A stretch of 64,000 bases of DNA from a virus, in the UHGV virus genome UHGV-0033546; one strand, 5' to 3'. The notes beneath the pieces were generated by a model. It had not been told where the DNA came from. It did not search any database and worked only from the letters and a program-made list of their open reading frames with translations. The number at the start of each line of letters is the position of its first letter. The first letter of the stretch is position 1. Positions 4,682 to 60,643 of this stretch are shown piece after piece. The translations under genes were made by a program, and so were the position numbers.

Positions 4682-4711
4682 ATTATACCATACTCATTTT
4701 GGAAAGTAAAC
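4682..4711 (-). promoter_or_regulatory. T4-type early promoter
   Basis: minus strand GTTTACT, 17-nt spacer, TGG-TATAAT. Confidence 0.6.
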
Positions 4712-4721
4712 CGGTAAAATG

Positions 4722-4747
4722 AAAAAAAGGACTCCCGAGGGAGTCCT
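4722..4747 (-). terminator. intrinsic terminator after soc
   Basis: GGACTCCC..GGGAGTCC hairpin followed by T7 run on minus strand. Confidence 0.6.
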
Positions 4748-6850: not shown

Positions 6851-7015
6851 TTACTCTTCTTTTTCTTTAGATTCCTCTTTTTTCTTTTTAGGAATCTGTT
6901 CAGGACCTTTATTTACTACAGCACCTGACGTTGTTCCAGTAGAGATATTTTCAGGATTACCACCTGAATCTCCAGCTACCATATCTTCTTTAATAAATTC
7001 TTTATATGTTTTCAT
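6851..7015 (-). CDS. hypothetical small protein (61.1 position) with capsid-targeting-like N-terminus
   Basis: 54 aa MKTYKEFIKEDMVAG...; ATG 1 nt after upstream stop; stop 2 nt before gene 61 ATG. Confidence 0.5.
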   Translation of the reverse strand: MKTYKEFIKEDMVAGDSGGNPENISTGTTSGAVVNKGPEQIPKKKKEESKEKEE

Positions 7016-7737: not shown

Positions 7738-7995
7738 TTATTTTAAAACTTCTGCATAATCACATGTTACAAACTGTTTCTCTAACTTGACGATTTTACG
7801 AAAGTATCTTTTGCATTGGCGAATCTGTCGCTTCGTAGGGCGCACAGCAAACTTAATAAATTCCGCTCGACCAAATGGAGGGCTTTCTTCTGCCGGAATA
7901 TCTAATACTAATTCCCACGTATCTGCAATAAGTGCTTTGAATTGTGTATTTTTCCTGACGTTATACGGAGTAGGTTTAAATAAAACAATATGCAT
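7738..7995 (-). CDS. hypothetical protein (61.4 position; possible TifA-like by position only)
   Basis: 85 aa from ATG 7995 (GAGGA SD, 1 nt after dmd stop); longer ATG at 8037 lacks SD. Confidence 0.5.
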   Translation of the reverse strand: MHIVLFKPTPYNVRKNTQFKALIADTWELVLDIPAEESPPFGRAEFIKFAVRPTKRQIRQCKRYFRKIVKLEKQFVTCDYAEVLK

Positions 7996-11270: not shown

Positions 11271-12119
11271 TTAATCAACTGCTATTGGATGAATAGCATT
11301 AAACTTATGAAATGCTTCTGATTTTTCTTTACGCGAAACACACATACGAAGAACCTTTAATGGCTCGTCTTCTTCACCCAACGATTTTCGTTTTTCAATA
11401 TTAGAAGTTTTCCAACGAGCTTGCTCTGGAAACTCTCTATTGATTTGCTCAAGAGCTCTATTATGTTTTGAATTACTACGAATTGAACTACACCCACCAG
11501 GAGCTTGTGCTTTTCCAGATACAACTAGATATTTGAACAAGGCCAAATGCGGATAACCTTGATTAATTAAATTGAGAAATGCATACATATCTTCGCATAA
11601 ATCAATTTTTCCATACCCAATTTGTTCTGTGGTAAGTTTTCCTAAATCATACCATGTATTTGTGAATCCATATGAATTTTCACGATAATTACCCCAAGAT
11701 GAAGTAATTTTAAAAATTGGTAGACGAGCATGGCCATGATAATACCCGCAATCCATGGCATCTTCAACGTATTGAATCAATTCATAGAACTGTTCACGAG
11801 TTAATTGATTAATTTTATCTACGCAGCGACGATCATCTTTCTTTCGCATTGAACTCATACGAATAGTAGTATCATCATCAATCATCCAAATTCGTTGACC
11901 TGCATACATATCAGTAATTGCTTTACGAGTACCAGCAATTCCGTTAACATCATCAGGAATAGTTATAATTTTAGCTCTAGACCCGTAAGCGTCATAATAA
12001 GCTTTTTCTTCATGTTTACGCACTACAATATGGGGTTCATAATCAGTCGGAAACATATCAAGGGCAGAAACTGCCCCGACACGCTGATAACTTGGAATTA
12101 CGAATTGAATCATTTCCAC
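11271..12119 (-). CDS. GT-A-type glycosyltransferase at the beta-gt locus (possible T2/T6-type beta-alpha glucosyltransferase)
   Basis: 282 aa; N-terminal FVIPSYQR and DxD (WMIDDD); not like 351-aa T4 beta-gt. Confidence 0.55.
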   Translation of the reverse strand: MEMIQFVIPSYQRVGAVSALDMFPTDYEPHIVVRKHEEKAYYDAYGSRAKIITIPDDVNGIAGTRKAITDMYAGQRIWMIDDDTTIRMSSMRKKDDRRCVDKINQLTREQFYELIQYVEDAMDCGYYHGHARLPIFKITSSWGNYRENSYGFTNTWYDLGKLTTEQIGYGKIDLCEDMYAFLNLINQGYPHLALFKYLVVSGKAQAPGGCSSIRSNSKHNRALEQINREFPEQARWKTSNIEKRKSLGEEDEPLKVLRMCVSRKEKSEAFHKFNAIHPIAVD

Positions 12120-13262: not shown

Positions 13263-13643
13263 TCACTTAGTCAAATTTTTTACACATGAATTATAAGAAT
13301 TCACTACATACTCCATCGGAGCATTTTTACCAGTACGCCATTGGTAATTATTAGCCCAATTAGCCCAAAGTTCGGCACAGTAGTTTTCAATTTTTTCTTC
13401 GCGTGTAATTACATCTGAATTACGATATGCTTGAGCAGATTCATCTGGACGAATAGCCTCGTCAAAATTCGCCTGCATTTGTTCTACCGTCTGTTTTGGA
13501 GCTTCTTTATAACACTTGACGTTAGGATTATAAAACTTACTTGAACAGTTTACAATTTTTCCTACATCAGATTGATTTACTACCGGTCCTTGAGCTACAC
13601 AACCAGTAAGACCCAATGCAATAACTAAAATAGTGATTTTCAT
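13263..13643 (-). CDS. predicted lipoprotein
   Basis: start re-assigned to ATG 13643 (GGAG SD); MKITILVIALGLTGC lipobox; 126 aa. Confidence 0.55.
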   Translation of the reverse strand: MKITILVIALGLTGCVAQGPVVNQSDVGKIVNCSSKFYNPNVKCYKEAPKQTVEQMQANFDEAIRPDESAQAYRNSDVITREEKIENYCAELWANWANNYQWRTGKNAPMEYVVNSYNSCVKNLTK

Positions 13644-13677
13644 TTCATTCTCCAAATCTGTATTGGTTGATAGTTGT

Positions 13678-13707
13678 ATAGTACCATGGAAGAACAGGGA
13701 TGTAAAT
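13678..13707 (-). promoter_or_regulatory. T4-type early promoter (variant -35 ATTTAC)
   Basis: minus strand ATTTACA, 18 nt, TGG-TACTAT; part of 63-bp repeat shared with 56818..56880. Confidence 0.5.
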
Positions 13708-13790
13708 AGTTTTGTGAAAAAATTTTTAATGAATTTACAGGACCTAGAATCATCTATTTTTCCTAAGTATAGATTTATATTACTTGTATG

Positions 13791-13811
13791 AAAAAGGGAC
13801 CCGGAGGTCCC
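13791..13811 (-). terminator. intrinsic terminator after gene 43
   Basis: GGGACC-CGGA-GGTCCC hairpin followed by T5 on minus strand. Confidence 0.55.
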
Positions 13812-13824
13812 TAGATTTATTCTA

Positions 13825-18545: not shown

Positions 18546-19232
18546 TTAAAAATCATGGGTAGAATCAGCTTCAAGAGCTACTACATAATTCGCGTGTTCA
18601 CCTTCAAATTTAGCAGCACCTTGTTTACCTTTTGCCCAGAGCAGAAGTTTATAATTTCCTGGTTGCATTTTCATATTTGCCATATTGATAATGAAATTAA
18701 ATGTATTTTCACCATCATAATCACCAAGATTCAAAGAATATTTAACACGGGTCAGAGCAGAATCTTCTACTTTATTAAAACCGTTAATTACGATTTTACC
18801 TTCTTTTACCGTGATAGCAATTGTATCAATTTGCAGACCACGAGATACACGCAACAGTTGTTGAAGGTCTTCAGCTTTAATTTCAGTAACAACAGATGCT
18901 ACCGGGAATGGAATTGGTTTATTAGGAGCAACTACTGTACTCGGATCGGCTGCTGGCCAAAAAATTGTTGAACGAGCATCAGCAATTTTAATATTTCCAT
19001 CTTCTGATTGGGAAATTTCTGCATCATCATTAACTAGGGACAGAATACCGAGAAAACCGTTCAAATCGTAAATTGCTACATCAAAATCAATAGTGTCAGA
19101 AATATTTGCTTCCGCATAAGTTGTACCATTAACTGCGCGAGTCATAATAAATTGACCAGATTTAAGCATAATACCGGAGTTAATAGTAGCGAAATTTTTC
19201 AAAATATTCAGTGTGTCTTTAGATAATTTCAT
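18546..19232 (-). CDS. 45: sliding clamp gp45
   Basis: 228 aa nearly identical to recalled T4 gp45. Confidence 0.95.
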   Translation of the reverse strand: MKLSKDTLNILKNFATINSGIMLKSGQFIMTRAVNGTTYAEANISDTIDFDVAIYDLNGFLGILSLVNDDAEISQSEDGNIKIADARSTIFWPAADPSTVVAPNKPIPFPVASVVTEIKAEDLQQLLRVSRGLQIDTIAITVKEGKIVINGFNKVEDSALTRVKYSLNLGDYDGENTFNFIINMANMKMQPGNYKLLLWAKGKQGAAKFEGEHANYVVALEADSTHDF

Positions 19233-20116
19233 TTCAATTTCCTATTTACATAATAGTTAGACCAGGACCGTACAGCACCCTGATAAGATTCGTCGTTAAA
19301 CCCATTAGCTACTGCAATTTTACGAAATTTATTATAACTCGGTTTTCCGTAAGCATGCCATAAAGATTTTAATTCATCTTCATGTTCAATCCAAGTTCCT
19401 CTAGCTTTAGATTTTCTAAATTTTGATTTGAATTCCGGTGAATTATTTCTAACAGTTGCTTGAATTGAAGCTCTCTGTCTTCTTTCAGCATTATTCCATA
19501 ACTCTTTTTGAGATTTAGAAATTTTTGATTTTACACTTTCTGAATTCATTATATCACTAAACTTTTTAGCATAACTGCAATCAAGATATTTCAATTTCAT
19601 CTTATTTGAAAGTTTAAGCTTTTTCTCATCGGTCCAGTGATTCTTCATTGAATTAGATATTTTGTATTTTACGTCAGAACTATGTTTGTAACCTTTACGA
19701 ATACCAACATAATCGGGCGTAATTTCAGATTGCGAAAGCTTTACAATTTTTCCAGTTAAAACATTTTTATATGTTCCATATCCTTTAGCGCCAATTAAAG
19801 TATTTTCATCTGCGTATGCTTTATTAAAATATTTTATATTACTTTTTGCTTTAACTTTTAATTGAAAAAATCTTTCCAATTTTCTTGGATCTAATATAGT
19901 TTCAGCTAAAATTTTGACGGTATATTTAGTGGTTTTAATAAGCTCAAAATATTCATCGCTATAACTCGATGACACGCTTCCAGTATAAATCTTTCCAGCT
20001 GAATCAATTATATTTGTTCCATCGAAAATTGCGTCAATTTTCGAACCTATATAATAACATGGAAAAATATTTTTAGCTTCCCGCTCTGGAAAGCTAATAA
20101 GATATACTAAATTCAT
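19229..20116 (-). CDS. putative GIY-YIG homing endonuclease with NUMOD-like repeats
   Basis: 295 aa; VYLISF...YYIGS; basic KxS repeats; between rpbA and 45. Confidence 0.55.
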
Positions 20117-22453: not shown

Positions 22454-23308
22454 TCACAATGAAGAAAATTCTTTAACTAAAGCCTGTAATGAAGCCTCTA
22501 TTGGATATCCATTCTTAACTAACATTTTCCTAAACATCACATGTTTAGGACGATTATATGATATCCACAATTCATACAATTTATCTTTATTATCCCAATG
22601 ATAGCCTTTTCGTCGAGATGCTATATGAGCTTTTCTAATCTCCGGATTTTTCCAACTAGCAGCTACTGAATTTAATATAGCTATTTTATATTCAGGTTTT
22701 GATAAAGCAGCACGAACAGCCTTTTGGTGTTTAATTTTATTTTCTTCGTTATTAAACCATTCCCTTGAAGCCATTGAAATTTTTTGTTTTGTTTTAAAAT
22801 TATTTAATCTTTCTTTGTTATCTTTCCTATTTTTTGCTACTGAAAAATATTTTAATGCCCTTTCTCTAGCAACATTTCTATTTTGTGGATTTGAATAATA
22901 CTGTTGAAGCCTTTTTGATATTGTGTCACTTACATCCTGTCTTATAAAACTATATTCAGCAGCTATTAAATCAACTTCGGCTAAAGATAAATTTTTATAT
23001 GTTTTTCCTGACATCATTCTATTTAAAGCATTTAGCATTTTTCCATTTTTACCTTTTGCTAATAAGAAATGTGCTTTGAAATGATTAAAATGACTTAAAT
23101 TAACTAAATTCCATGTAGATTTTAAATATTCAGGAAATATTGATTTAGGAAGCACGTGGTGTGCTTCCGTTTTACCTGGAGTTTTAACAGTTGAATTCAT
23201 AGAAATAAAATTAATATAAGACTTGGCGTCTTCTTCACTCAACGCTAATTTTTCAACTAATTCCTTTATTAAAAATTCATCATTAATATCAAGTTTAAAA
23301 TTCTTCAC
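22454..23308 (-). CDS. free-standing HNH homing endonuclease
   Basis: 284 aa; HNH core EAHHVLPKS...NLVNLSHFNHFKAH; NUMOD-like repeats. Confidence 0.7.
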   Translation of the reverse strand: MKNFKLDINDEFLIKELVEKLALSEEDAKSYINFISMNSTVKTPGKTEAHHVLPKSIFPEYLKSTWNLVNLSHFNHFKAHFLLAKGKNGKMLNALNRMMSGKTYKNLSLAEVDLIAAEYSFIRQDVSDTISKRLQQYYSNPQNRNVARERALKYFSVAKNRKDNKERLNNFKTKQKISMASREWFNNEENKIKHQKAVRAALSKPEYKIAILNSVAASWKNPEIRKAHIASRRKGYHWDNKDKLYELWISYNRPKHVMFRKMLVKNGYPIEASLQALVKEFSSL

Positions 23309-39598: not shown

Positions 39599-40126
39599 TT
39601 ATGCGAGTACCGTCTTTAACCGTTCTTCAAACTTCCGAAGAGTATTTTGGCGTTCAGCTCTTTGCTTTTTGTAAGTTTCAATACGCTCTGAAATGAGAGT
39701 GTATCGTTCATTTACTGATTCTTTCATAAAATCAGGAATTTCACGAGAAGCTTTAATCTCGTCAAATTTATCAATAACAGCTTGCTCTTCAGCAATTAAA
39801 TTATCATACATTAAAATATCTTTCTTGATGAACTCAATATCTTCTTGAGTTACACGAGATAATTTAGATGCTTTATCCTTTTTGTACTGTTCGTTAGTAT
39901 CACGAGACCAGTGTAATGTACGATTTTTATTCGTATTTTTGTAAATTTCTACAATACCAATCTCATCAATAATAACGATCCAATTCCAACGTGATTTGTA
40001 AATTTGTCCTCCATCAACAGTGATTTCACCTCCGATTGAGATGTCATTAAAGAACTTGCTTTGTGCTTCAGATTTAAATTTACCATCATTGTAATTTACC
40101 AAGTTGAAAATATCTTTAGCGTTCAT
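39599..40126 (-). CDS. hypothetical protein with C-terminal coiled coil
   Basis: 175-aa ORF(-) just downstream of early promoter. Confidence 0.5.
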   Translation of the reverse strand: MNAKDIFNLVNYNDGKFKSEAQSKFFNDISIGGEITVDGGQIYKSRWNWIVIIDEIGIVEIYKNTNKNRTLHWSRDTNEQYKKDKASKLSRVTQEDIEFIKKDILMYDNLIAEEQAVIDKFDEIKASREIPDFMKESVNERYTLISERIETYKKQRAERQNTLRKFEERLKTVLA

Positions 40127-40154
40127 TTTCTGTTCCTCCGTAGTTGATAGTTGT

Positions 40155-40590: not shown

Positions 40591-41577
40591 TTATTTCAGA
40601 AGAGTAACCTCAGCGATTTCTTCCCAACCGTTTTTGTCGGTCATAATAAAGTCAGCAAGATAAAGAGCAGTACGCAGTGAAACATTGCGTAAACGATTAA
40701 CATTAACTTTCATCCATGATAATGCTTTATAAGTTTCTTCATCAGAAAGACCGCGCTTTTGCATCATGTCAGTTGAAAGAATAACATCTTCAACCCTGAC
40801 CATAATTTCTTCATTAGTGTGAACACCCAAATCTAAATAAACCGAGCGGGACACTAATGCTTGTAAATGTGGAGCAAGTTTAGTACCACGGTCTAATTCG
40901 CGGTCAATGTCAACGTTTGTGATAAAAACAATCGTTCCTTTAAATTCAAACTCACGCTCAATGCCTTTTTCTTCTAAGTAAGAAGACGCAGTGCTCCAGC
41001 AGACTTTACGGGTCTCTCCAGTGTCCAGAGCAGCTTTTAGAAGATTAAGAATGTCCATATCAGAGAAAACATCCACATCATCAATCAAAAGGACAGAATT
41101 CTCTTCACGATTATTCCAAAGCTGCTCATAAAGACCAATACCAGAGATTTTACCATTAATGCTTTTATATTCAATGTATCCAATATCATTTGCTTTATTT
41201 AAAGCTTTATCTAAAGAATACGTTTTACCAATACCTGCCGCTCCTGAGATAATTAATGAACGAATATTTCCGTTAATAATACCATTCGTCATCATTCCCA
41301 TAACATTAAATCTTTTATTAATGCGGGTTTTCATATCTTCATATGATTCTTTAACTTCTTCAACTTTTACACCATCATATGAAATATCTGATTTGTAAAC
41401 CCAAACACCGCGACGCTTACCGTCAATTTCAACAAAAACTTTACCATCTCCTTGTGCATCTACCGGAGCATTATCTGGGAACCATTCGCCTAAGAGCTCA
41501 AAAGTTCCAGAGATTTCTTTACCGAAGTAGATACCCTTATTGATAGTTACAGTTTTCATTTTATTCTCCAATTTCAC
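40591..41577 (-). CDS. P-loop (AAA+-like) ATPase
   Basis: 328 aa; Walker A GAAGIGKT, Walker B VLLIDDVD after a 100-aa N-terminal domain. Confidence 0.65.
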   Translation of the reverse strand: MKLENKMKTVTINKGIYFGKEISGTFELLGEWFPDNAPVDAQGDGKVFVEIDGKRRGVWVYKSDISYDGVKVEEVKESYEDMKTRINKRFNVMGMMTNGIINGNIRSLIISGAAGIGKTYSLDKALNKANDIGYIEYKSINGKISGIGLYEQLWNNREENSVLLIDDVDVFSDMDILNLLKAALDTGETRKVCWSTASSYLEEKGIEREFEFKGTIVFITNVDIDRELDRGTKLAPHLQALVSRSVYLDLGVHTNEEIMVRVEDVILSTDMMQKRGLSDEETYKALSWMKVNVNRLRNVSLRTALYLADFIMTDKNGWEEIAEVTLLK

Positions 41578-41595
41578 ATTTGTTTTGATAGGGTA

Positions 41596-41625
41596 ATAGT
41601 ATCACACTACTACCCTACTGTAAAC
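41596..41625 (-). promoter_or_regulatory. T4-type early promoter
   Basis: minus strand GTTTACA, 18 nt, TACTAT. Confidence 0.55.
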
Positions 41626-41628
41626 AAT

Positions 41629-41892
41629 TTATTTTAATGTTTGCCAAATTTTTACTGCTTCGCGACGAGATACTTCTACAGCTCCAAGTTCTACGGCTTT
41701 TTGGCGTCGCCGAGCATGTAAGTCATAATGTTTAATGCGTTTATCTTGAAACCAAGAACGTTTCATTCCTATTGCTTCTGCCATTTTATGAAGCTCTTCA
41801 ATATCTCCATCAGTGAACATATGACAATTTTTAGTTGGATGACCGCGAAGTTTCCATCCATGATTCATTAAAACATCTACGTAAACTGTCAT
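41629..41892 (-). CDS. small DUF4031-like protein
   Basis: 87 aa; pattern HxFTDGDxEELHxxAxxIGxxRSWFQ...HYDL recalled for DUF4031 (unverified). Confidence 0.5.
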   Translation of the reverse strand: MTVYVDVLMNHGWKLRGHPTKNCHMFTDGDIEELHKMAEAIGMKRSWFQDKRIKHYDLHARRRQKAVELGAVEVSRREAVKIWQTLK

Positions 41893-42074
41893 TGATTCTG
41901 CTCCAAATATGTTTCTATAATTTTCTGAGCGAGATAAACTGCGTTATCTTCAGTTGCATCTTCTAAGAAACTTTCAAAACACTCTGAAATTTCTTCTGTG
42001 TCAATCAACTTTTTTACTTCAATTGGTGTAATTTTCATTTTGTTTTCCGTTTATGTGTTTGTTTTGATAGTTGT

Positions 42075-42104
42075 ATAGTACTACAAAGCTCTATGCTTGT
42101 AAAC
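42075..42104 (-). promoter_or_regulatory. T4-type early promoter
   Basis: minus strand GTTTACA, 18 nt, TACTAT. Confidence 0.55.
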
Positions 42105-42128
42105 AGTTTTGTGAAAAATTTTTGAAAT

Positions 42129-42152
42129 AAAAAAGGGAGCCCGAAGGCTCCC
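42129..42152 (-). terminator. intrinsic terminator (CUUCGG hairpin + T-run)
   Basis: GGGAGCC-UUCG-GGCUCCC followed by T6 on minus strand. Confidence 0.6.
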
Positions 42153-42154
42153 TA

Positions 42155-45521: not shown

Positions 45522-45718
45522 GCCATATGTGTTGCAGCTTCATCACACATATCATAACGTTTCTTAAGAAGTTCTACAAGCTCTTCACTAGTAACTTCAT
45601 CCATGTCGACGAAAAAATCACCATTAATGATGACGTAGATATTTCCTTCTTGATTGAGTGCTTCAATTTTCATGATGTTCTCCTCTTTATCTGATAGTTG
45701 TATAGTATCACAGCTCAA
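45485..45718 (-). CDS. hypothetical protein
   Basis: 77-aa ORF(-) downstream of early promoter. Confidence 0.45.
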
Positions 45719-45731
45719 ATGGAAAGTAAAC
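45702..45731 (-). promoter_or_regulatory. T4-type early promoter
   Basis: minus strand GTTTACT, 18 nt, TACTAT; same module as at 4682..4747. Confidence 0.55.
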
Positions 45732-45741
45732 CGGTAAAATG

Positions 45742-45763
45742 AAAAAAGTCTCCCGAAGGAGAC
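45742..45763 (-). terminator. intrinsic terminator (CUUCGG hairpin + T-run)
   Basis: GUCUCC-UUCG-GGAGAC followed by T6 on minus strand. Confidence 0.6.
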
Positions 45764-45768
45764 TAATG

Positions 45769-52077: not shown

Positions 52078-52551
52078 TTATTTAAATGATTTGACGTACT
52101 GAACAGAACCTTTGCTATTCACGAAAGCGATTTTACCATTTTTGTTATACATGGTAGCAGTACGCTGATAGCCATAAGTTTGCTTACCAGATTGATAACC
52201 AACTAATGCAAAATTATCTTCGCCCATTTTATTCTGTTTAGCACGAATACGCTCATGACCGTGAGCCATAAGAACCTTAGCATCGCCAGTTGCAATGGAT
52301 CTACGAGTTTTTTCATCTTCAACTGTATTAACAAAGTCGTCAAATGAATCAAATTTAGCATGAGATTTATTATACAGTTTTCCATCTACTGCATAATTAT
52401 ATCCCTGTACATCCATCTCAACTTCTGTACCATCATCCAATACAGCAGTGATTTTTTGACCTTTTTTAAATTTCAAAAGATCAGTAAAAGATTCAGCAAT
52501 AATTTGAGAATTAATAGCTGCTTCAGTGATAAATTCTTGATATGTTTTCAT
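52078..52551 (-). CDS. internal (capsid-packaged) protein
   Basis: 157 aa; N-terminal capsid-targeting sequence MKTYQEFITEA; ip locus next to denV/e. Confidence 0.6.
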   Translation of the reverse strand: MKTYQEFITEAAINSQIIAESFTDLLKFKKGQKITAVLDDGTEVEMDVQGYNYAVDGKLYNKSHAKFDSFDDFVNTVEDEKTRRSIATGDAKVLMAHGHERIRAKQNKMGEDNFALVGYQSGKQTYGYQRTATMYNKNGKIAFVNSKGSVQYVKSFK

Positions 52552-52560
52552 GTGTTTCCT

Positions 52561-52977
52561 TTAAATGTAAATATTTTTACCGTAATACTTATACCAGTGT
52601 GGTTTCATTAAAATTTTTTCATCGAGTCGTTGTTGACTCAACTTAATAGCTGATTTGCATGGGTTATAATCATTTTTCCATTCTACTGGAATATCGCTGA
52701 TGTCAGGAACTTCAGTATCTTTTATACTGAACCCGCGTTTTAAGCATTCCGTTATAATGTCTGATTGACGCTTTCGCAAAAATTCTAACTTATCGTAAAA
52801 GAACGTAACATGACCAGAACCTAAAATAAACTCGGAAGATATTTTAAAATCTTTAACTCTCTTACCATTTGCCACATGTTTACGAACTATACCAAAAACG
52901 CGTGGCAATTCACGGTATTCTGCAATTAAATGCTGATCAGCAAGTTCAGATACTAAAGTCAAATTAATACGAGTCAT
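52561..52977 (-). CDS. denV: endonuclease V (pyrimidine dimer glycosylase)
   Basis: 138 aa near-identical to recalled T4 endo V. Confidence 0.9.
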
Positions 52978-53002
52978 TTTATCCCTCCAAGTAACTGTGA
53001 AT

Positions 53003-53032
53003 ATACTATCACAATTCTAGGAGAAAGTAAAC
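53003..53032 (-). promoter_or_regulatory. T4-type early promoter
   Basis: minus strand GTTTACT, 18 nt, TAGTAT upstream of denV. Confidence 0.55.
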
Positions 53033-53036
53033 AACT

Positions 53037-56418: not shown

Positions 56419-56522
56419 AGTATTTCCTTAGGTTGATTAAGATTTAAAATCCGTAAAAGTAGTATTATACTCTATCATCAAGTCACAGGCTCATAATATC
56501 TCAATCATGAGCCTATGTAAAC

Positions 56523-56798
56523 TTATTTCATATTATTGAAATATTCTTCTGCGATTTCGTCGTTATCATGGTAAACTTTAGAAGACAGTTTAACATAACC
56601 TTCAGCAGTGAACATGTTAATCACAACCTTTACAGTATACCACTGACCGTCTTCATTACCCATTACTGCGTAAGTTTCAAACATCGGATGATCAGGACCG
56701 ATAACTTTAATATCATTCACTGTACGACCAAAATCTTCTGAAACGCATTTCATAAAGAAGTTAAACAGTTCGCCGTAATTATCCATTTCATTCTCCAA
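56523..56798 (-). CDS. hypothetical protein
   Basis: 91-aa acidic ORF(-). Confidence 0.5.
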   Translation of the reverse strand: MENEMDNYGELFNFFMKCVSEDFGRTVNDIKVIGPDHPMFETYAVMGNEDGQWYTVKVVINMFTAEGYVKLSSKVYHDNDEIAEEYFNNMK

Positions 56799-56829
56799 GT
56801 TGTTTTCTGTATCAGTAGTTGATAGTTGT

Positions 56830-56859
56830 ATAGTACCATGGAAGAACAGTCTTGTAAAC
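56830..56859 (-). promoter_or_regulatory. T4-type early promoter
   Basis: minus strand GTTTACA, 18 nt, TGG-TACTAT; part of 63-bp repeat shared with 13666..13728. Confidence 0.55.
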
Positions 56860-56992
56860 AGTTTTGTGAAAAAATTTTTAAAAATTTTTAGGGAATTCTA
56901 GGGCAGGGAGGGGAAATTAAAAGGTAGGATAATATATTATAAAGGGTATAAACTAAATGATGCCTAGAAAGGCCCGGAAAGGCCTAGATACC

Positions 56993-57020
56993 AAAAAGCC
57001 CCAACCTTTCGGCTGGGGCT
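56993..57020 (-). terminator. intrinsic terminator (repeat copy 1)
   Basis: AGCCCCAGCC-GAAA-GGUUGGGGCU hairpin + T5 on minus strand; near-identical copy at 57551..57579. Confidence 0.6.
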
Positions 57021-57027
57021 AAGAATG

Positions 57028-57501
57028 TTATTTGATTTGTTTAGCAGACCAAATGCGGTCTTTAATAATTTTTTGGATGTCTTCAACATACTCTAGGTCA
57101 TGAGCATGTGGATTATCTTTAAAACTATGAGCTCGCGCAAGTTTCTGGCCTTCGGTCTTAATTACCAAAAGTTCTTTAAGGATAGCTTCATATTTAGAGA
57201 TAATTCCTTTAACAATATTTTTCTCTTGTGCGGCTTTAGGATCTGCTTTAGGAGCAGGTTTACCCGAAGCCTTTGCAAAAGCAGCTCCAGTAGCAACTAG
57301 ACTTTTCCAGGCCATACTAACCGCATTTCCCGTAAATCCTTCTGCTTTCATGTCGCGAGCAAATTGGAATCGTGATTCGTCAGAAGCATCTTTATAAGAA
57401 TATTTACCCGCTGCAATGGCTGCTTTTGCAACAGCTTGAATTTCGGTGCTAGATGCTTCATTTAACACCGCTTCATTTAAAAATTGAGTATATGATTTCA
57501 T
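57028..57501 (-). CDS. internal (capsid-packaged) protein
   Basis: 157 aa; capsid-targeting-like N-terminus MKSYTQFLNEA; Ala/Lys-rich; flanked by duplicated terminators. Confidence 0.6.
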   Translation of the reverse strand: MKSYTQFLNEAVLNEASSTEIQAVAKAAIAAGKYSYKDASDESRFQFARDMKAEGFTGNAVSMAWKSLVATGAAFAKASGKPAPKADPKAAQEKNIVKGIISKYEAILKELLVIKTEGQKLARAHSFKDNPHAHDLEYVEDIQKIIKDRIWSAKQIK

Positions 57502-57541: not shown

Positions 57542-57549
57542 TATTTATA
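57542..57549 (-). promoter_or_regulatory. late promoter TATAAATA
   Basis: exact TATAAATA on minus strand about 40 nt upstream of 57501 ATG. Confidence 0.5.
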
Positions 57550-57550
57550 C

Positions 57551-57579
57551 TAAAAAGCCCCAACCTTTCGGTCGGGGCT
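57551..57579 (-). terminator. intrinsic terminator (repeat copy 2)
   Basis: AGCCCCGACC-GAAA-GGUUGGGGCU hairpin + T5 on minus strand. Confidence 0.6.
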
Positions 57580-57885
57580 AAGCCTTGCGGCAACCTTGTC
57601 GGGGTTCCACCTGCTAAGGCAAGTGTTTGTACGAAACGCCGGGATTCGAACCCGGTTATTAAGTAGTTGACGCTACTCAATATTTTTAAAAGGCCATATC
57701 TCGACCATATCCGAACGTTCCGTCAAAAACGCTACTCGGCTTACGGTAAAGATATTTCCTCGAATCGATAATTCGGTGCGCCGTTTCAGCTGTGATAGTA
57801 AAGAACCAGAACACAGTAAAACTGTGGGAGGAACTATACTCCAGGGAACATCAGTCCGACGACTTACCGGTAGCGACCCGGTTTC

Positions 57886-58252: not shown

Positions 58253-58328
58253 TGGTCGAGGCAGTAGGGATCGAACCTACGACCTAGGACTTAGAAGGTC
58301 CTTGCTCTTCCTTCTGAGCTATGCCCCG
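58253..58328 (-). tRNA. tRNA-Arg (anticodon TCT)
   Basis: manual cloverleaf: acceptor CGGGGCA/TGCCTCG, anticodon loop CTTCTAA, T-loop TTCGATC, CCA encoded. Confidence 0.8.
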
Positions 58329-58332
58329 TAAT

Positions 58333-58408
58333 TGGGGTGACCGATGGGAGTCGAACCCATGACTACGAGAATCACAATCTCGAGTTCTACCAACTGAACT
58401 ACGGCCAC
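58333..58408 (-). tRNA. tRNA-His (anticodon GTG)
   Basis: manual cloverleaf: anticodon loop TTGTGAT, T-arm ATGGG-TTCGACT-CCCAT, discriminator C, CCA encoded. Confidence 0.7.
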
Positions 58409-58522
58409 ATTAATACCTACTCCAACAATCAAGATGTCTTCACACGAAATTAAGAGAAGAATGATCAGTTCAACCCTTATAATCGCGTCAAGTAGATATT
58501 AATGTGACAGTTGTCACAAATT

Positions 58523-58597
58523 TGGCGGACATGCATGGATTCGAACCATGGACCAATTGATTAACAGTCAACTGCTCTACCACTGAGCTACACATCC
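58523..58597 (-). tRNA. tRNA-Asn (anticodon GTT)
   Basis: manual cloverleaf: D-stem GCTC/GAGC, anticodon loop CTGTTAA, T-loop TTCGAAT, CCA encoded. Confidence 0.7.
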
Positions 58598-58601
58598 AAA
58601 T

Positions 58602-58688
58602 TGGTGGGGAGTGATGGAGTCGAACCACCCGAGTCGCAATGACAATGGATTTACAGTCCACACCGCTACCTCTACGGGATAACTCCCC
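58602..58688 (-). tRNA. tRNA-Tyr (anticodon GTA), type II
   Basis: 87 nt; perfect acceptor GGGGAGT/ACTCCCC, anticodon loop CTGTAAA, long variable arm; D-arm pairing imperfect. Confidence 0.6.
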
Positions 58689-58701
58689 CTAATTCATAAT
58701 T

Positions 58702-58776
58702 TGGTGGCCCTGGGTGGAATTGAACCACCATCTGGCGATTATGAGTCGCTTGCTTGAACCTTCCAGCTACAGGGCC
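58702..58776 (-). tRNA. tRNA with anticodon CAT (Ile2-lysidine type or Met)
   Basis: acceptor GGCCCTG/CAGGGCC, anticodon loop CTCATAA, T-arm GGTGG-TTCAATT-CCACC, CCA encoded. Confidence 0.65.
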
Positions 58777-58777
58777 T

Positions 58778-58853
58778 TGGTGCTGATTGACGGAATCGAA
58801 CCGCCGACATCCTCATTACAAGTGAGGTGCTCTACCTACTGAGCTAAATCAGC
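58778..58853 (-). tRNA. tRNA-Thr (anticodon TGT)
   Basis: acceptor GCTGATT/AATCAGC, anticodon loop CTTGTAA, CCA encoded. Confidence 0.8.
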
Positions 58854-58858
58854 AAAAC

Positions 58859-58948
58859 TGGCGGAGGCGATAGGATTTGAACCTATGAGTCGCCGGAGCG
58901 ACTGCCGGTTTTCAAGACCGGTGCATTAAACCACTCTGCCACGCCTCC
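58859..58948 (-). tRNA. tRNA-Ser (anticodon TGA), type II
   Basis: 90 nt; anticodon stem CCGGT/ACCGG, loop CTTGAAA, long variable arm, CCA encoded. Confidence 0.8.
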
Positions 58949-58950
58949 AG

Positions 58951-59024
58951 TCTCCATACAAGGATTTGAACCTTGGACCTCCTGATCCCAAATCAGGCGC
59001 TCTACCAAACTGAGCTACACGGAG
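58951..59024 (-). tRNA. tRNA-Pro (anticodon TGG), CCA not encoded
   Basis: anticodon loop TTTGGGA, T-arm CAAGG-TTCAAAT-CCTTG; 2 nt from tRNA-Ser (dimeric precursor as in T4). Confidence 0.8.
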
Positions 59025-59034
59025 TAAATTAAAT

Positions 59035-59108
<74 letters not shown>

Positions 59109-59113
59109 AAATT

Positions 59114-59200
59114 TGGTGCGAGAAGTGGGACTCGAACCCACAAGGAAATCATTCCGCAGCATTTTAAGTGCTGTGCCTTTACCAATTTGACCATTCTCGC
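59114..59200 (-). tRNA. tRNA-Leu (anticodon TAA), type II
   Basis: 87 nt; anticodon stem CAGCA/TGCTG, loop CTTAAAA, long variable arm, CCA encoded. Confidence 0.8.
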
Positions 59201-59201
59201 G

Positions 59202-59274
59202 CTGGGAATAAAGGACTCGAACCTTTGCATCCTGGAATCAAAATCCAGTGCCTTACCAACTTGGCTAATTCCCA
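59202..59274 (-). tRNA. tRNA-Gln (anticodon TTG), CCA not encoded
   Basis: acceptor TGGGAAT/ATTCCCA, anticodon loop TTTTGAT; 1 nt from tRNA-Leu (dimeric precursor). Confidence 0.8.
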
Positions 59275-60325: not shown

Positions 60326-60613
60326 TTACAAAAGATTTTTAGCAATAATCTTGAGATGTGCTGCAGAAATGTGTTTAGCTTTAAACAACGCAGTTTCTTC
60401 AGCAGGAGAGATAACGATTGTAGCACCATCCTTTTTAGCAGACCACCCATCACCTAGGTAAACAGTACCTTTGATTTCTTCGCCATCAACCAGACTAATC
60501 ATTGGTTTACCTTCTCGTCCTTTATTTGCTTTAATAACTTCAGAAGTAAGAGTAGCCTCGGTAATGGTAGAAACCGGGGTAGTTGTAGAAGTAAATTCTT
60601 TGAAAGTTTTCAT
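60326..60613 (-). CDS. internal protein I-like (capsid-packaged)
   Basis: 95 aa; capsid-targeting-like N-terminus MKTFKEFTS; position upstream of 57B/57A as T4 ipI. Confidence 0.55.
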   Translation of the reverse strand: MKTFKEFTSTTTPVSTITEATLTSEVIKANKGREGKPMISLVDGEEIKGTVYLGDGWSAKKDGATIVISPAEETALFKAKHISAAHLKIIAKNLL

Positions 60614-60643
60614 TTTATTTTCCTAATTAATTTTGATGAGATA

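Follow-up and report, generated by a model that had tools for sequence, protein, structure and literature searches.

The early promoters of bacteriophage T4 are read by the host σ70 RNA polymerase straight after infection. They have been characterized as very strong and σ70-dependent (Hinton 2010, PMC2988021), and early promoters also lie at the heart of the promoter-early stem-loop (PeSL), a cassette that was defined, together with its mini-circles, by Arbiol 2010 (PMC2839356) and was later reported from T4/PST by Comeau, Arbiol and Krisch 2014 (PMC4122927), where it follows the consensus TTTACW-N17-TAYWAT. Here we describe the repeated promoter modules scattered over a 64,000-nt stretch of viral DNA, from genome UHGV-0033546 (the whole stretch is referred to as the window), and compare them with these systems. 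The repeats are very probably immediate-early promoter PeSL cassettes of a T4-like phage, with recombination between copies. A sequence-only reading of the window had suggested the resemblance to PeSLs; the finding is correct and already known under that name, T4 itself included (PMC2839356, PMC4122927). In RB49/phi1 the mini-circles and the promoter and terminator activities were established by experiment (PMC2839356), and the modules of the window are described here from their sequence.

By alignment the window is a Tequatrovirus (T4-like) segment. In blastn searches it is collinear with T4 (NC_000866) 10587-77266, with about 20 insertions, deletions or replacements breaking the alignment, and its 12-16 kb region and first 25 kb are matched at about 96% identity by hundreds of Tequatrovirus genomes, none of them exactly. 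All window genes are carried on the minus strand, as are all the modules and terminators given below, and they span most of the T4 early region (dda.1/srd, modA, 41, 43, 55, nrd, tk and regB) before continuing via e and the tRNA cluster to genes 1-4. The window was compared with 11 genomes: T4, N2, T2, Shfl2 and BCPEco001 from GenBank, and six IMG/VR genomes labelled G1-G6, of which five are close Tequatrovirus genomes and one (G6, IMGVR_UViG_2974739009) is a more distant relative; the remaining IMG/VR loci were left out as too divergent for nucleotide breakpoints.

The repeat that first drew attention is a pair of about 63 bp, 13666-13728 and 56818-56880, reported at roughly 90 percent identity. 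The pair is real (4 mismatches over 63 nt, counted by eye) and holds 90% identity over 71 ungapped nt (13666-13736 vs 56818-56888); as had been claimed, it spans an early promoter, that of imm.1 at 13.7 kb and that of e.8 at 56.8 kb. A 17-nt core, GATAGTTGTATAGTACC, for which shuffled sequences give an expectation of 0 occurrences, is exact at 13669, 40146 and 56821 and recurs with one mismatch at 42066 and 45693, which accounts for the copies announced near 40141 and 42061 and adds the one at 45693, missing from the earlier list. The variant core GATAGGGTAATAGTATCAC is likewise exact at 41587 and 60268; the third copy claimed for it, at 60635, is looser, with 3 mismatches (GATGAGATAATAGTATCAC). 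The duplicated terminator-plus-promoter module at 4682-4747 and 45702-45763 was also recovered: 28 nt are identical (4700-4727 = 45720-45747), and the similarity covers the terminator hairpin, the T-run and the -35 hexamer, with divergence beyond the -35. Throughout, the positions in the sequence-only reading proved right to a few bases.

These copies belong to a set of 19 extended σ70 early promoters in the window, in which an AT-rich upstream region is followed by TTTAC[A/T], a 17-nt spacer, TGn, the -10 hexamer, a Shine-Dalgarno (SD) sequence and ATG. The -35 sequence and the spacer length hold in 19/19, and the spacer ends in TGn at 16/19. Fourteen of the 19 -10 hexamers fit TAYWAT (TACTAT 9, TATAAT 3, TATTAT 2), and five lie outside it (TATAGT three times, TAGTAT and TATGAT). 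A TATCAA motif is conserved after the -10 hexamer, around the start site, and the 19-site matrix also carries information ahead of the -35 hexamer; the 29 nt preceding that hexamer have an AT content of 0.55-0.90 (at least 0.69 in 15/19; window 0.655), lowest in the two modules whose terminator abuts the -35 hexamer. SD and ATG follow 25-43 nt past the -10 hexamer in 18/19, the exception being P56521. It is this uniform minus-strand, σ70-type arrangement, each promoter followed by SD and start codon, together with stem-loops at 16/19 modules and clustering in variable regions, that bears out the proposed likeness to PeSLs. Under a weight matrix derived from the 19 sites, these score 25-54 bits and every other site, on both strands, below 9 bits; high scores of the seed sites are expected by construction, and the informative part is the gap to all others. 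Plain σ70 hexamer matches are not over-represented (79 found vs 75 expected), and a generic hexamer scan was rejected as a discriminator in this AT-rich DNA, where only the extended matrix separates the sites. No strong promoter (matrix score of at least 25 bits) was found in the core replication block at 14-29 kb. Collinearity with T4 places the promoters before srd, modB, mrh.2, sp, dmd, imm.1, 55.6, nrdC.4, nrdC.8, nrdC.10, mobD.2, mobD.5, regB, ipIII, e.7, e.8, trna.4 and ipI, promoter 41624 being an extra one without a T4 counterpart.

Shared architecture does not by itself imply shared history, and the two can be told apart here. Compared over 70 nt, the 171 promoter pairs average 49% identity, the same as column-shuffled alignments do, so most copies are alike only as far as function demands. 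In 2000 column shuffles that keep the consensus, the best pair averages 63% and never exceeds 71%; three pairs lie above this maximum, namely 13706/56858 (90%), 56858/40183 (76%) and 56858/42103 (74%). One subfamily (imm.1, e.8, nrdC.8 and nrdC.10/11) thus has, to judge from these pairs, a shared history beyond the consensus. Within the more distant genome G6, the promoters at loci L014, L040 and L072 form a subfamily of their own, with the stem AGGACT/AGTCCT around a TATAGT -10 in several copies; promoter subfamilies, each with a stem of its own, therefore seem to spread inside a genome.

The clearest evidence for exchange comes from the first bases of the spacer, which are of two types, 'tccct' and 'agact'. 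At imm.1 and e.8, respectively, they read tccct and agact in the window and in BCPEco001, agact and tcctt in T4, agact and tccct in G5, agaat and tccct in G3, and agact (inside an nrdC.8-type spacer) and tccct in T2; G1 has tcccc and tctct, Shfl2 tcccc and tccct, G2 tccct at both loci, and G4 agaat at imm.1. Wherever agact or agaat holds one locus, the other sampled locus is of the 'tccct' type, and a three-base difference at reciprocal loci in different phages makes parallel mutation implausible. The imm.1 promoter of T4 and the e.8 promoter of the window are identical over about 70 nt before each runs into its locus-specific leader. In T2, the promoter at the imm locus is chimeric: imm-type sequence gives way at the -35 to nrdC.8-type sequence, which continues to the ATG. 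The nrdC.8 promoter of G1 bears a -10/discriminator patch of the 60305 type. These chimeric and swapped alleles link loci 26-43 kb apart and, on sequence grounds, demonstrate that exchange between promoter copies has happened. In a megablast search of the e.8 promoter against 50,697 phage records, the alleles were not separable by identity band.

Stem-loops accompany 16/19 modules, either as a hairpin around the -10 hexamer (10 modules) or as an intrinsic terminator upstream (6 modules). When the RNA between the -35 hexamer and the ATG was folded and compared with 200 shuffles, eight modules gave strong structures (60672, 56521, 53031, 49929, 44918, 41624, 40183 and 8237; z-scores of -4.3 to -6.5, with 0/200 shuffles as good) and two gave moderate ones (37228, z -3.05; 60305, z -2.3), with no structure detectable by this folding at 56858, 13706, 45730, 42103, 29447, 7734, 4710, 2611 and 1275. 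The hairpins share one geometry: the 5′ arm lies in the -35/-10 spacer, the -10 hexamer in the loop, and the 3′ arm past the -10 hexamer, either before the start site or beyond it. Their stem sequences differ at this one shared position (TAGGGT/ACCCTA, GATGAG/CTCATC, ACAAGA/TCTTGT, AGGCTCAT/ATGAGCCT), and relatives add GGTCT/AGACC and AGGACT/AGTCCT. Spacers pair better with their own downstream sequence than with that of other promoters (mean -10.3 vs -7.1 kcal/mol; reached in 0/20000 permutations), and at unique sites helix mismatches are of the G.U type 22 times vs 5 times for the A.C type (p=0.002), a bias that points to sense-strand RNA. The other six hairpins, 16-138 nt before promoters 4710, 45730, 42103, 29447, 13706 and 56858, are intrinsic terminators, with a GC-rich stem and then a U-tract. 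The two kinds exclude each other, with 10 modules embedded, 6 upstream, 3 with neither and 0 with both (Fisher p=0.003), and intergenic gaps are about 58-104 bp with embedded hairpins and 95-241 bp with upstream terminators. Terminator scans of the window returned 0/10 of the embedded hairpins, and a search of Rfam found no family matching the hairpins, the 11 tRNAs being the sole matches. The 3′ arm coincides with the SD at nrdC.8, regB and P53031-denV, possibly also at P37228, and not at the other six embedded hairpins. Sequestration of the SD was accordingly discarded as a general role, as it fits only 3-4 of the 10.

Gene content varies around the modules. Chained blastn alignments of the window with the 11 genomes, with promoter modules taken as 121 bp and making up 3.6% of the window, distinguished 88 indel or replacement events and 107 breakpoint clusters. 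Of these clusters, 17 fall in modules, against 3.8 expected under a uniform null (p=3e-7); of the 88 events, 22 touch a module with one boundary or more, 13 of them with both. Among gene junctions, 12/17 of those with a promoter carry a breakpoint vs 53/124 of all (odds ratio 3.2, p=0.03). The crossovers occupy three zones, the UP/-35 region, the stretch just past the -10 hexamer, and the SD/ATG with the first codons, and identical zones were described by Arbiol 2010 (PMC2839356). Several events serve as examples. A 460-bp cassette at 41572..42031, with ORF49 (phrog_6888), ORF87 (phrog_4887) and promoter P41624, is absent from T4, N2, G2, G3, T2 and BCPEco001; a promoter/SD/ATG module stands at either end, and the junction shows a 19-nt overlap that lies in the SD/ATG. 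An open reading frame (ORF) of 78-85 aa is inserted exactly at the imm.1 ATG (13643/13636) in G1-G4 and Shfl2, and G5 has an extra ORF-plus-promoter unit at 7745. At the ipI locus, four to five alternative ORFs occur between two promoters: the ORF between P60672 and P60305 has 95 aa here (ipI-like), 77 aa in G1 and 102 aa in G2, and G3 has an 85-aa ORF plus an extra 77-aa ORF with its own promoter.

Several observations weigh against the reading of these modules as PeSLs that direct recombination. The breakpoints show no excess at promoters over other intergenic regions of at least 50 bp (12/16 vs 16/26, p=0.29), and 14/15 long non-promoter intergenic regions in a hand-curated list carry breakpoints as well; the gene calls behind the junction null were crude, with several starts mis-called, and with the long intergenic list curated by hand the no-excess result is then the stronger one. 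Junction overlaps of 2-40 nt occur at promoter and non-promoter events alike, and at least 13 indel events involve homing endonuclease genes, none of them at a promoter module. As regards the stem-loops, the headline pair has no embedded hairpin within the repeat (RNA fold z +0.4 and -0.8), its stem-loops being ordinary terminators 88 and 138 nt upstream; three modules (P7734, P2611 and P1275) have no stem-loop at all; and the 10 embedded hairpins all lack a U-tract (their 3′ arms run into sequences such as AAAAUUAA, UCAACUAC and GCCAAGG), which means that they are not canonical intrinsic terminators. With these reservations the PeSL proposal is supported. The sequence-only reading had expected the repeats to coincide with gene-content breakpoints between relatives; breakpoints do fall in modules, so this expectation was not contradicted, though the test is weak. 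Because other long intergenic regions match breakpoints as often, the coincidence is not specific to promoters, and the case for exchange therefore rests on the chimeric and swapped promoter alleles.

We favour the following mechanism. The cassette is a compact minus-strand unit of UP-like AT-rich region, -35, spacer, -10, TATCAA, GGAG-type SD and ATG, and all copies are alike (~49% identity) because some 60-100 nt are constrained. Most cassettes would also handle incoming transcription, by an upstream terminator or, where the intergenic gap is short (some 60-75 bp), by a spacer hairpin; the -10-enclosing hairpin can form only in read-through RNA, where it may act as an attenuator, a 3′-end stabilizer or, in 3-4 cases, an SD-sequestering element. 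Shared stretches of 20-70 nt would provide substrates for phage homologous recombination, through which patches could be copied between distant promoters and cassettes inserted, lost or swapped with junctions at the UP/-35, after the -10 and at the SD/ATG. We infer that the homology of the promoters is a cause of these exchanges and not a passenger in them. More tentatively, and with the odds rather against it, the spacer-built hairpins may be selected RNA elements of read-through transcripts that replace terminators in short gaps, with a subset (nrdC.8, regB and P53031-denV) hiding the SD.

The most serious competitor to promoter-driven exchange is a moron-like model in which accessory genes travel with their own promoter, and the intergenic position of the promoters, rather than their homology, explains the indel boundaries. 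It is in keeping with the equal frequency of breakpoints in other long intergenic regions, and with inserted cassettes that bring distinct promoters, such as the GGTCT/AGACC-stem promoter that G4 has at locus 41624, the TGTACA variant that G5, T2 and Shfl2 share at e.7, and the extra ORF-plus-promoter units in G3 and G5. Such a model has difficulty with chimeric junctions inside conserved blocks (the T2 imm locus switches at the -35), with reciprocal-locus alleles that involve no change in gene content, with junction overlaps of 8-40 nt lying in promoter/SD/ATG sequence, and with the PeSL mini-circles demonstrated experimentally in RB49/phi1 (PMC2839356). It is compatible with the explanation preferred here and does not exclude it; as the account of these repeats we hold it possible, though on balance doubtful. 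That the modules owe their likeness to selection for very strong recognition by σ70 and the C-terminal domain of the RNA polymerase alpha subunit, with no common descent or exchange, is far less probable. Most of the 171 pairs do sit at the identity expected from position weights, and T4 early promoters have an unusually extended consensus (PMC2988021), but the three closest pairs exceed all 2000 shuffles, their identity covers spacer positions with almost no matrix information, and a multi-base spacer block has been swapped between loci across genomes. For the imm.1/e.8/nrdC.8/nrdC.10 subfamily the alignments already contradict pure convergence.

Multiple dispersed copies, some of them flanking small ORFs, might also bring to mind the ends or remnants of a small self-transposing element, akin to a miniature inverted-repeat transposable element (MITE) or of a homing type. 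All copies have a single orientation, however, and each sits exactly at a promoter position about 30-45 nt ahead of a start codon; neither terminal inverted repeats nor duplicated target sites were noticed beside them, no search having been aimed at these, and there is no associated transposase, the homing endonuclease genes of the window lying elsewhere. On these grounds of orientation, position and missing transposase the MITE or transposon idea was discarded; it is almost certainly wrong. A last question is whether the embedded hairpins work as DNA, in cruciform or single-stranded form, as targets of recombination or nucleases. The inverted repeats are of course present in the DNA too, and recombination points in RB49/phi1 were mapped within a stem-loop (PMC2839356), but a symmetric cruciform would not predict the sense-strand bias of 22 G.T over 5 A.C mismatches, which fits RNA or one particular strand, and the mutual exclusion with terminators suggests a role at the transcript level. 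We regard a DNA-level function as improbable, if less so than convergence.

The individual modules can now be described, beginning with the flagged pair and its relatives. P13706 (13641..13736) is the promoter of the imm.1 homologue (13263-13643), with its -35 TTTACA at 13706-13701, a 17-nt spacer, the -10 TACTAT at 13683-13678, the SD GGAG and the ATG at 13643; the intrinsic terminator after gene 43 (13795..13812; AGGGACCTCCGGGTCCCT plus a T-run) lies 88 nt upstream of its -35. P56858 (56784..56888), the e.8 promoter (gene 56523-56786), is 90% identical to P13706, has the rare 'agact' spacer allele and is preceded at 138 nt by an intrinsic terminator (56997..57020). This terminator belongs to a pair of hairpins of 92% identity (56988-57023 and 57547-57582) that flank a 157-aa ORF (57028-57501, phrog_2280); at this site T4, T2 and BCPEco001 have one terminator and no ORF, and G1, G3 and G6 a different insert of about 670 bp. 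Going by these comparisons, 57028-57501 is a cassette bounded by repeated terminators, not promoters. The late-promoter-like motif TATAAATA occurs directly past its upstream terminator. P40183 (40124..40213), the promoter of nrdC.8 (39599-40126), belongs to the P56858 subfamily at 76% identity and has a 15-bp hairpin around the -10 hexamer (-23.2 kcal/mol, z -6.5), the SD GGAGGA forming its 3′ arm. P42103 and the terminator ahead of it at 42134-42153 (together 42036..42153) come next; this promoter would drive ORF49 (41889-42038) in the window, and its T4 orthologue has nrdC.10 directly downstream. In the orthologous nrdC.10 promoter of Shfl2 (L102), the segment with the -10 and the leader is partly duplicated in tandem (…ggatttggatggTACTATacaactatcaactga…), in a way that recalls the slipped or degraded PeSLs reported by Comeau 2014 (PMC4122927). 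Here nrdC.10 is preceded instead by P41624 (41557..41654), whose core is GATAGGGTAATAGTATCAC and whose -10 is enclosed by a TAGGGTA/TACCCTA hairpin (-17.2 kcal/mol, z -4.3).

Two promoters bracket the ipI locus. P60305 (60246..60335) precedes the trna.4 homologue, with a TAGGGT/ACCCTA hairpin around the -10 (z -2.3), and P60672 (60611..60702) precedes the ipI-like internal protein gene (60326-60613), with GATGAG/CTCATC in the same place (z -4.9). At internal-protein loci homology runs from the promoter into the first codons. Three further ORFs have similar N-termini, MKTYKEFIKE, MKTYQEFITEA and MKSYTQFLNEA (6985-7015, 52521-52551 and 57471-57501), and the ipI-like gene begins MKTFKEF. These termini resemble what we take to be the capsid-targeting leader of T4 internal proteins, a likeness by which 52078-52551 and 57028-57501 may encode internal head proteins. 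P53031 (52975..53061), which corresponds to the ipIII promoter of T4, has a hairpin of z -4.4 and is joined directly to denV (52561-52977): at 52561-53036 the lysozyme gene e gives way to an ipIII-type promoter and then at once to denV, T4's ipIII and ipII being absent. Its spacer reads ctcc, vs ctct in T4, and pairs with the denV SD GGAGGG. P56521 (56493..56551), equivalent to the e.7 promoter of T4, has the hairpin AGGCTCAT/ATGAGCCT (-17.6 kcal/mol, z -4.4) and, e.7 being deleted in the window, has neither SD nor ATG behind it; the deletion seems to have left it an orphan early promoter. About 100 nt with no ORF (56435-56487 region) lie there before e.6.

Among the remaining modules, P4710 (4653..4748, mrh.2) and P45730 (45671..45764, mobD.5) each have a terminator that ends 16 nt before the -35, the one at P45730 lying at 45747-45764, and they share the duplicated terminator-plus-(-35) half. 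P44918 (44859..44948), before a mobD.2-like small ORF, has a 15-bp hairpin with two G.U pairs around the -10 (-18.6 kcal/mol, z -4.9), and P8237 (8177..8267, dmd), which is related to it, a hairpin around the -10 (-16.3 kcal/mol, z -4.8). At P49929 (49871..49959, regB) the spacer pairs with the SD AAGAGGAG (-20.3 kcal/mol, z -5.2), and P37228 (37169..37258, nrdC.4) has moderate structure (z -3.05). P29447 (29386..29477, 55.6) has its terminator 81 nt upstream and no embedded hairpin. No stem-loop was found at P7734 (7677..7764, sp), P2611 (2554..2641, modB) or P1275 (1208..1305, srd).

Set beside the described systems, the modules agree most closely with the PeSLs of T4/PST (PMC4122927), with which they share the genus, the consensus, the AT-rich upstream region, the 3′ SD and ATG and, apparently, a hyperplastic location close to indels and ORF swaps. 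They differ in the placement of the stem-loops, which in T4/PST lie just upstream of the promoter (PMC4122927, Fig. 3 legend) and here enclose the -10 in 10/19 modules and lie upstream in 6, and in the five -10 hexamers outside TAYWAT. With the PeSLs of RB49/phi1 (PMC2839356) they have in common G-T pairs in the stems, crossovers between the -10 and the SD/ATG or in the stem-loop/AT-rich region, and ORFans between two PeSLs; those phages belong to another genus, and have near-perfect TTGACA/TATAAT promoters and polyG/polyC stems. The in-silico features of PeSLs are all present in the window, leaving aside specificity for indels, where an excess over a uniform null and over all gene junctions goes with none over other long intergenic regions. 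The UP element, -35, TGn, -10 and extra conserved positions are those of the T4 early promoter class (PMC2988021), whose description is functional, stem-loops and recombination being outside its scope. Alternative ORFs between conserved promoters and leaders were described at ipI and ipIII/ipII of T-even phages (Repoila et al. 1994, as summarized in PMC4122927); relative to that summary, the pattern in the window reaches loci for proteins other than internal ones, namely imm.1, nrdC.10 and sp. Lambdoid morons are similar as single accessory genes with their own promoter and terminator, but they are thought to arise by illegitimate recombination without conserved flanks (PMC2839356), whereas the flanks in the window are conserved and chimeric. 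Finally, hairpins that sequester the ribosome-binding site in combination with an internal promoter are known from T4 e, soc, 49 and I-TevI (Uzan and Miller 2010, PMC3014915). The candidate elements at nrdC.8, regB and P53031-denV share the SD within a helix and a 5′ arm upstream of the proximal start, so that only the proximal transcript would have a free SD; the known cases use a late internal promoter (TATAAATA) and block early read-through, and those of the window a σ70 early promoter.

Other differences from T4 were seen along the window. The T4 genes segF, dam, segA, mobB, mobC, I-TevII, mobD and segB are missing, and two homing endonuclease genes (phrog_655) are present at sites where T4 lacks them, 19229-20116 between genes 45 and rpbA and 22454-23308 adjoining gene 46. 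Eleven tRNA genes (Arg, His, Asn, Tyr, Met, Thr, Ser, Pro, Gly, Leu and Gln) lie at 58253-59274, vs eight annotated in T4. The gene at 11271-12119, flanked by uvsX and 42, lies where T2, Shfl2 and N2 have an annotated beta-glucosyl-HMC-alpha-glucosyltransferase, an assignment based on position and on the annotations of matching records; T4 has a beta-glucosyltransferase there. The record with annotated promoters, X75802, covers the ndd region, outside the window.

What is incremental here is the reciprocal exchange of alleles between loci 43 kb apart, the chimeric promoter of T2, the either-or pattern of hairpins and terminators, and the G.U bias. Coincidence with breakpoints alone does not, it should be stressed, set promoters apart from other intergenic DNA. 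If the SD-hiding hairpins do act as RNA elements, nrdC.8, regB and denV would be translated only from their own immediate-early promoters, which would make these hairpins an early-gene mirror of the late-gene switch at e, soc and 49, and RNA pairing would then constrain the promoter spacer alongside RNA polymerase. More generally, PeSL cassettes are the sites at which small accessory genes (for internal proteins, superinfection and host takeover) are gained, lost and exchanged in T4-like phages, and this turnover helps explain the differences in gene content among otherwise 96%-identical therapeutic and environmental phages.

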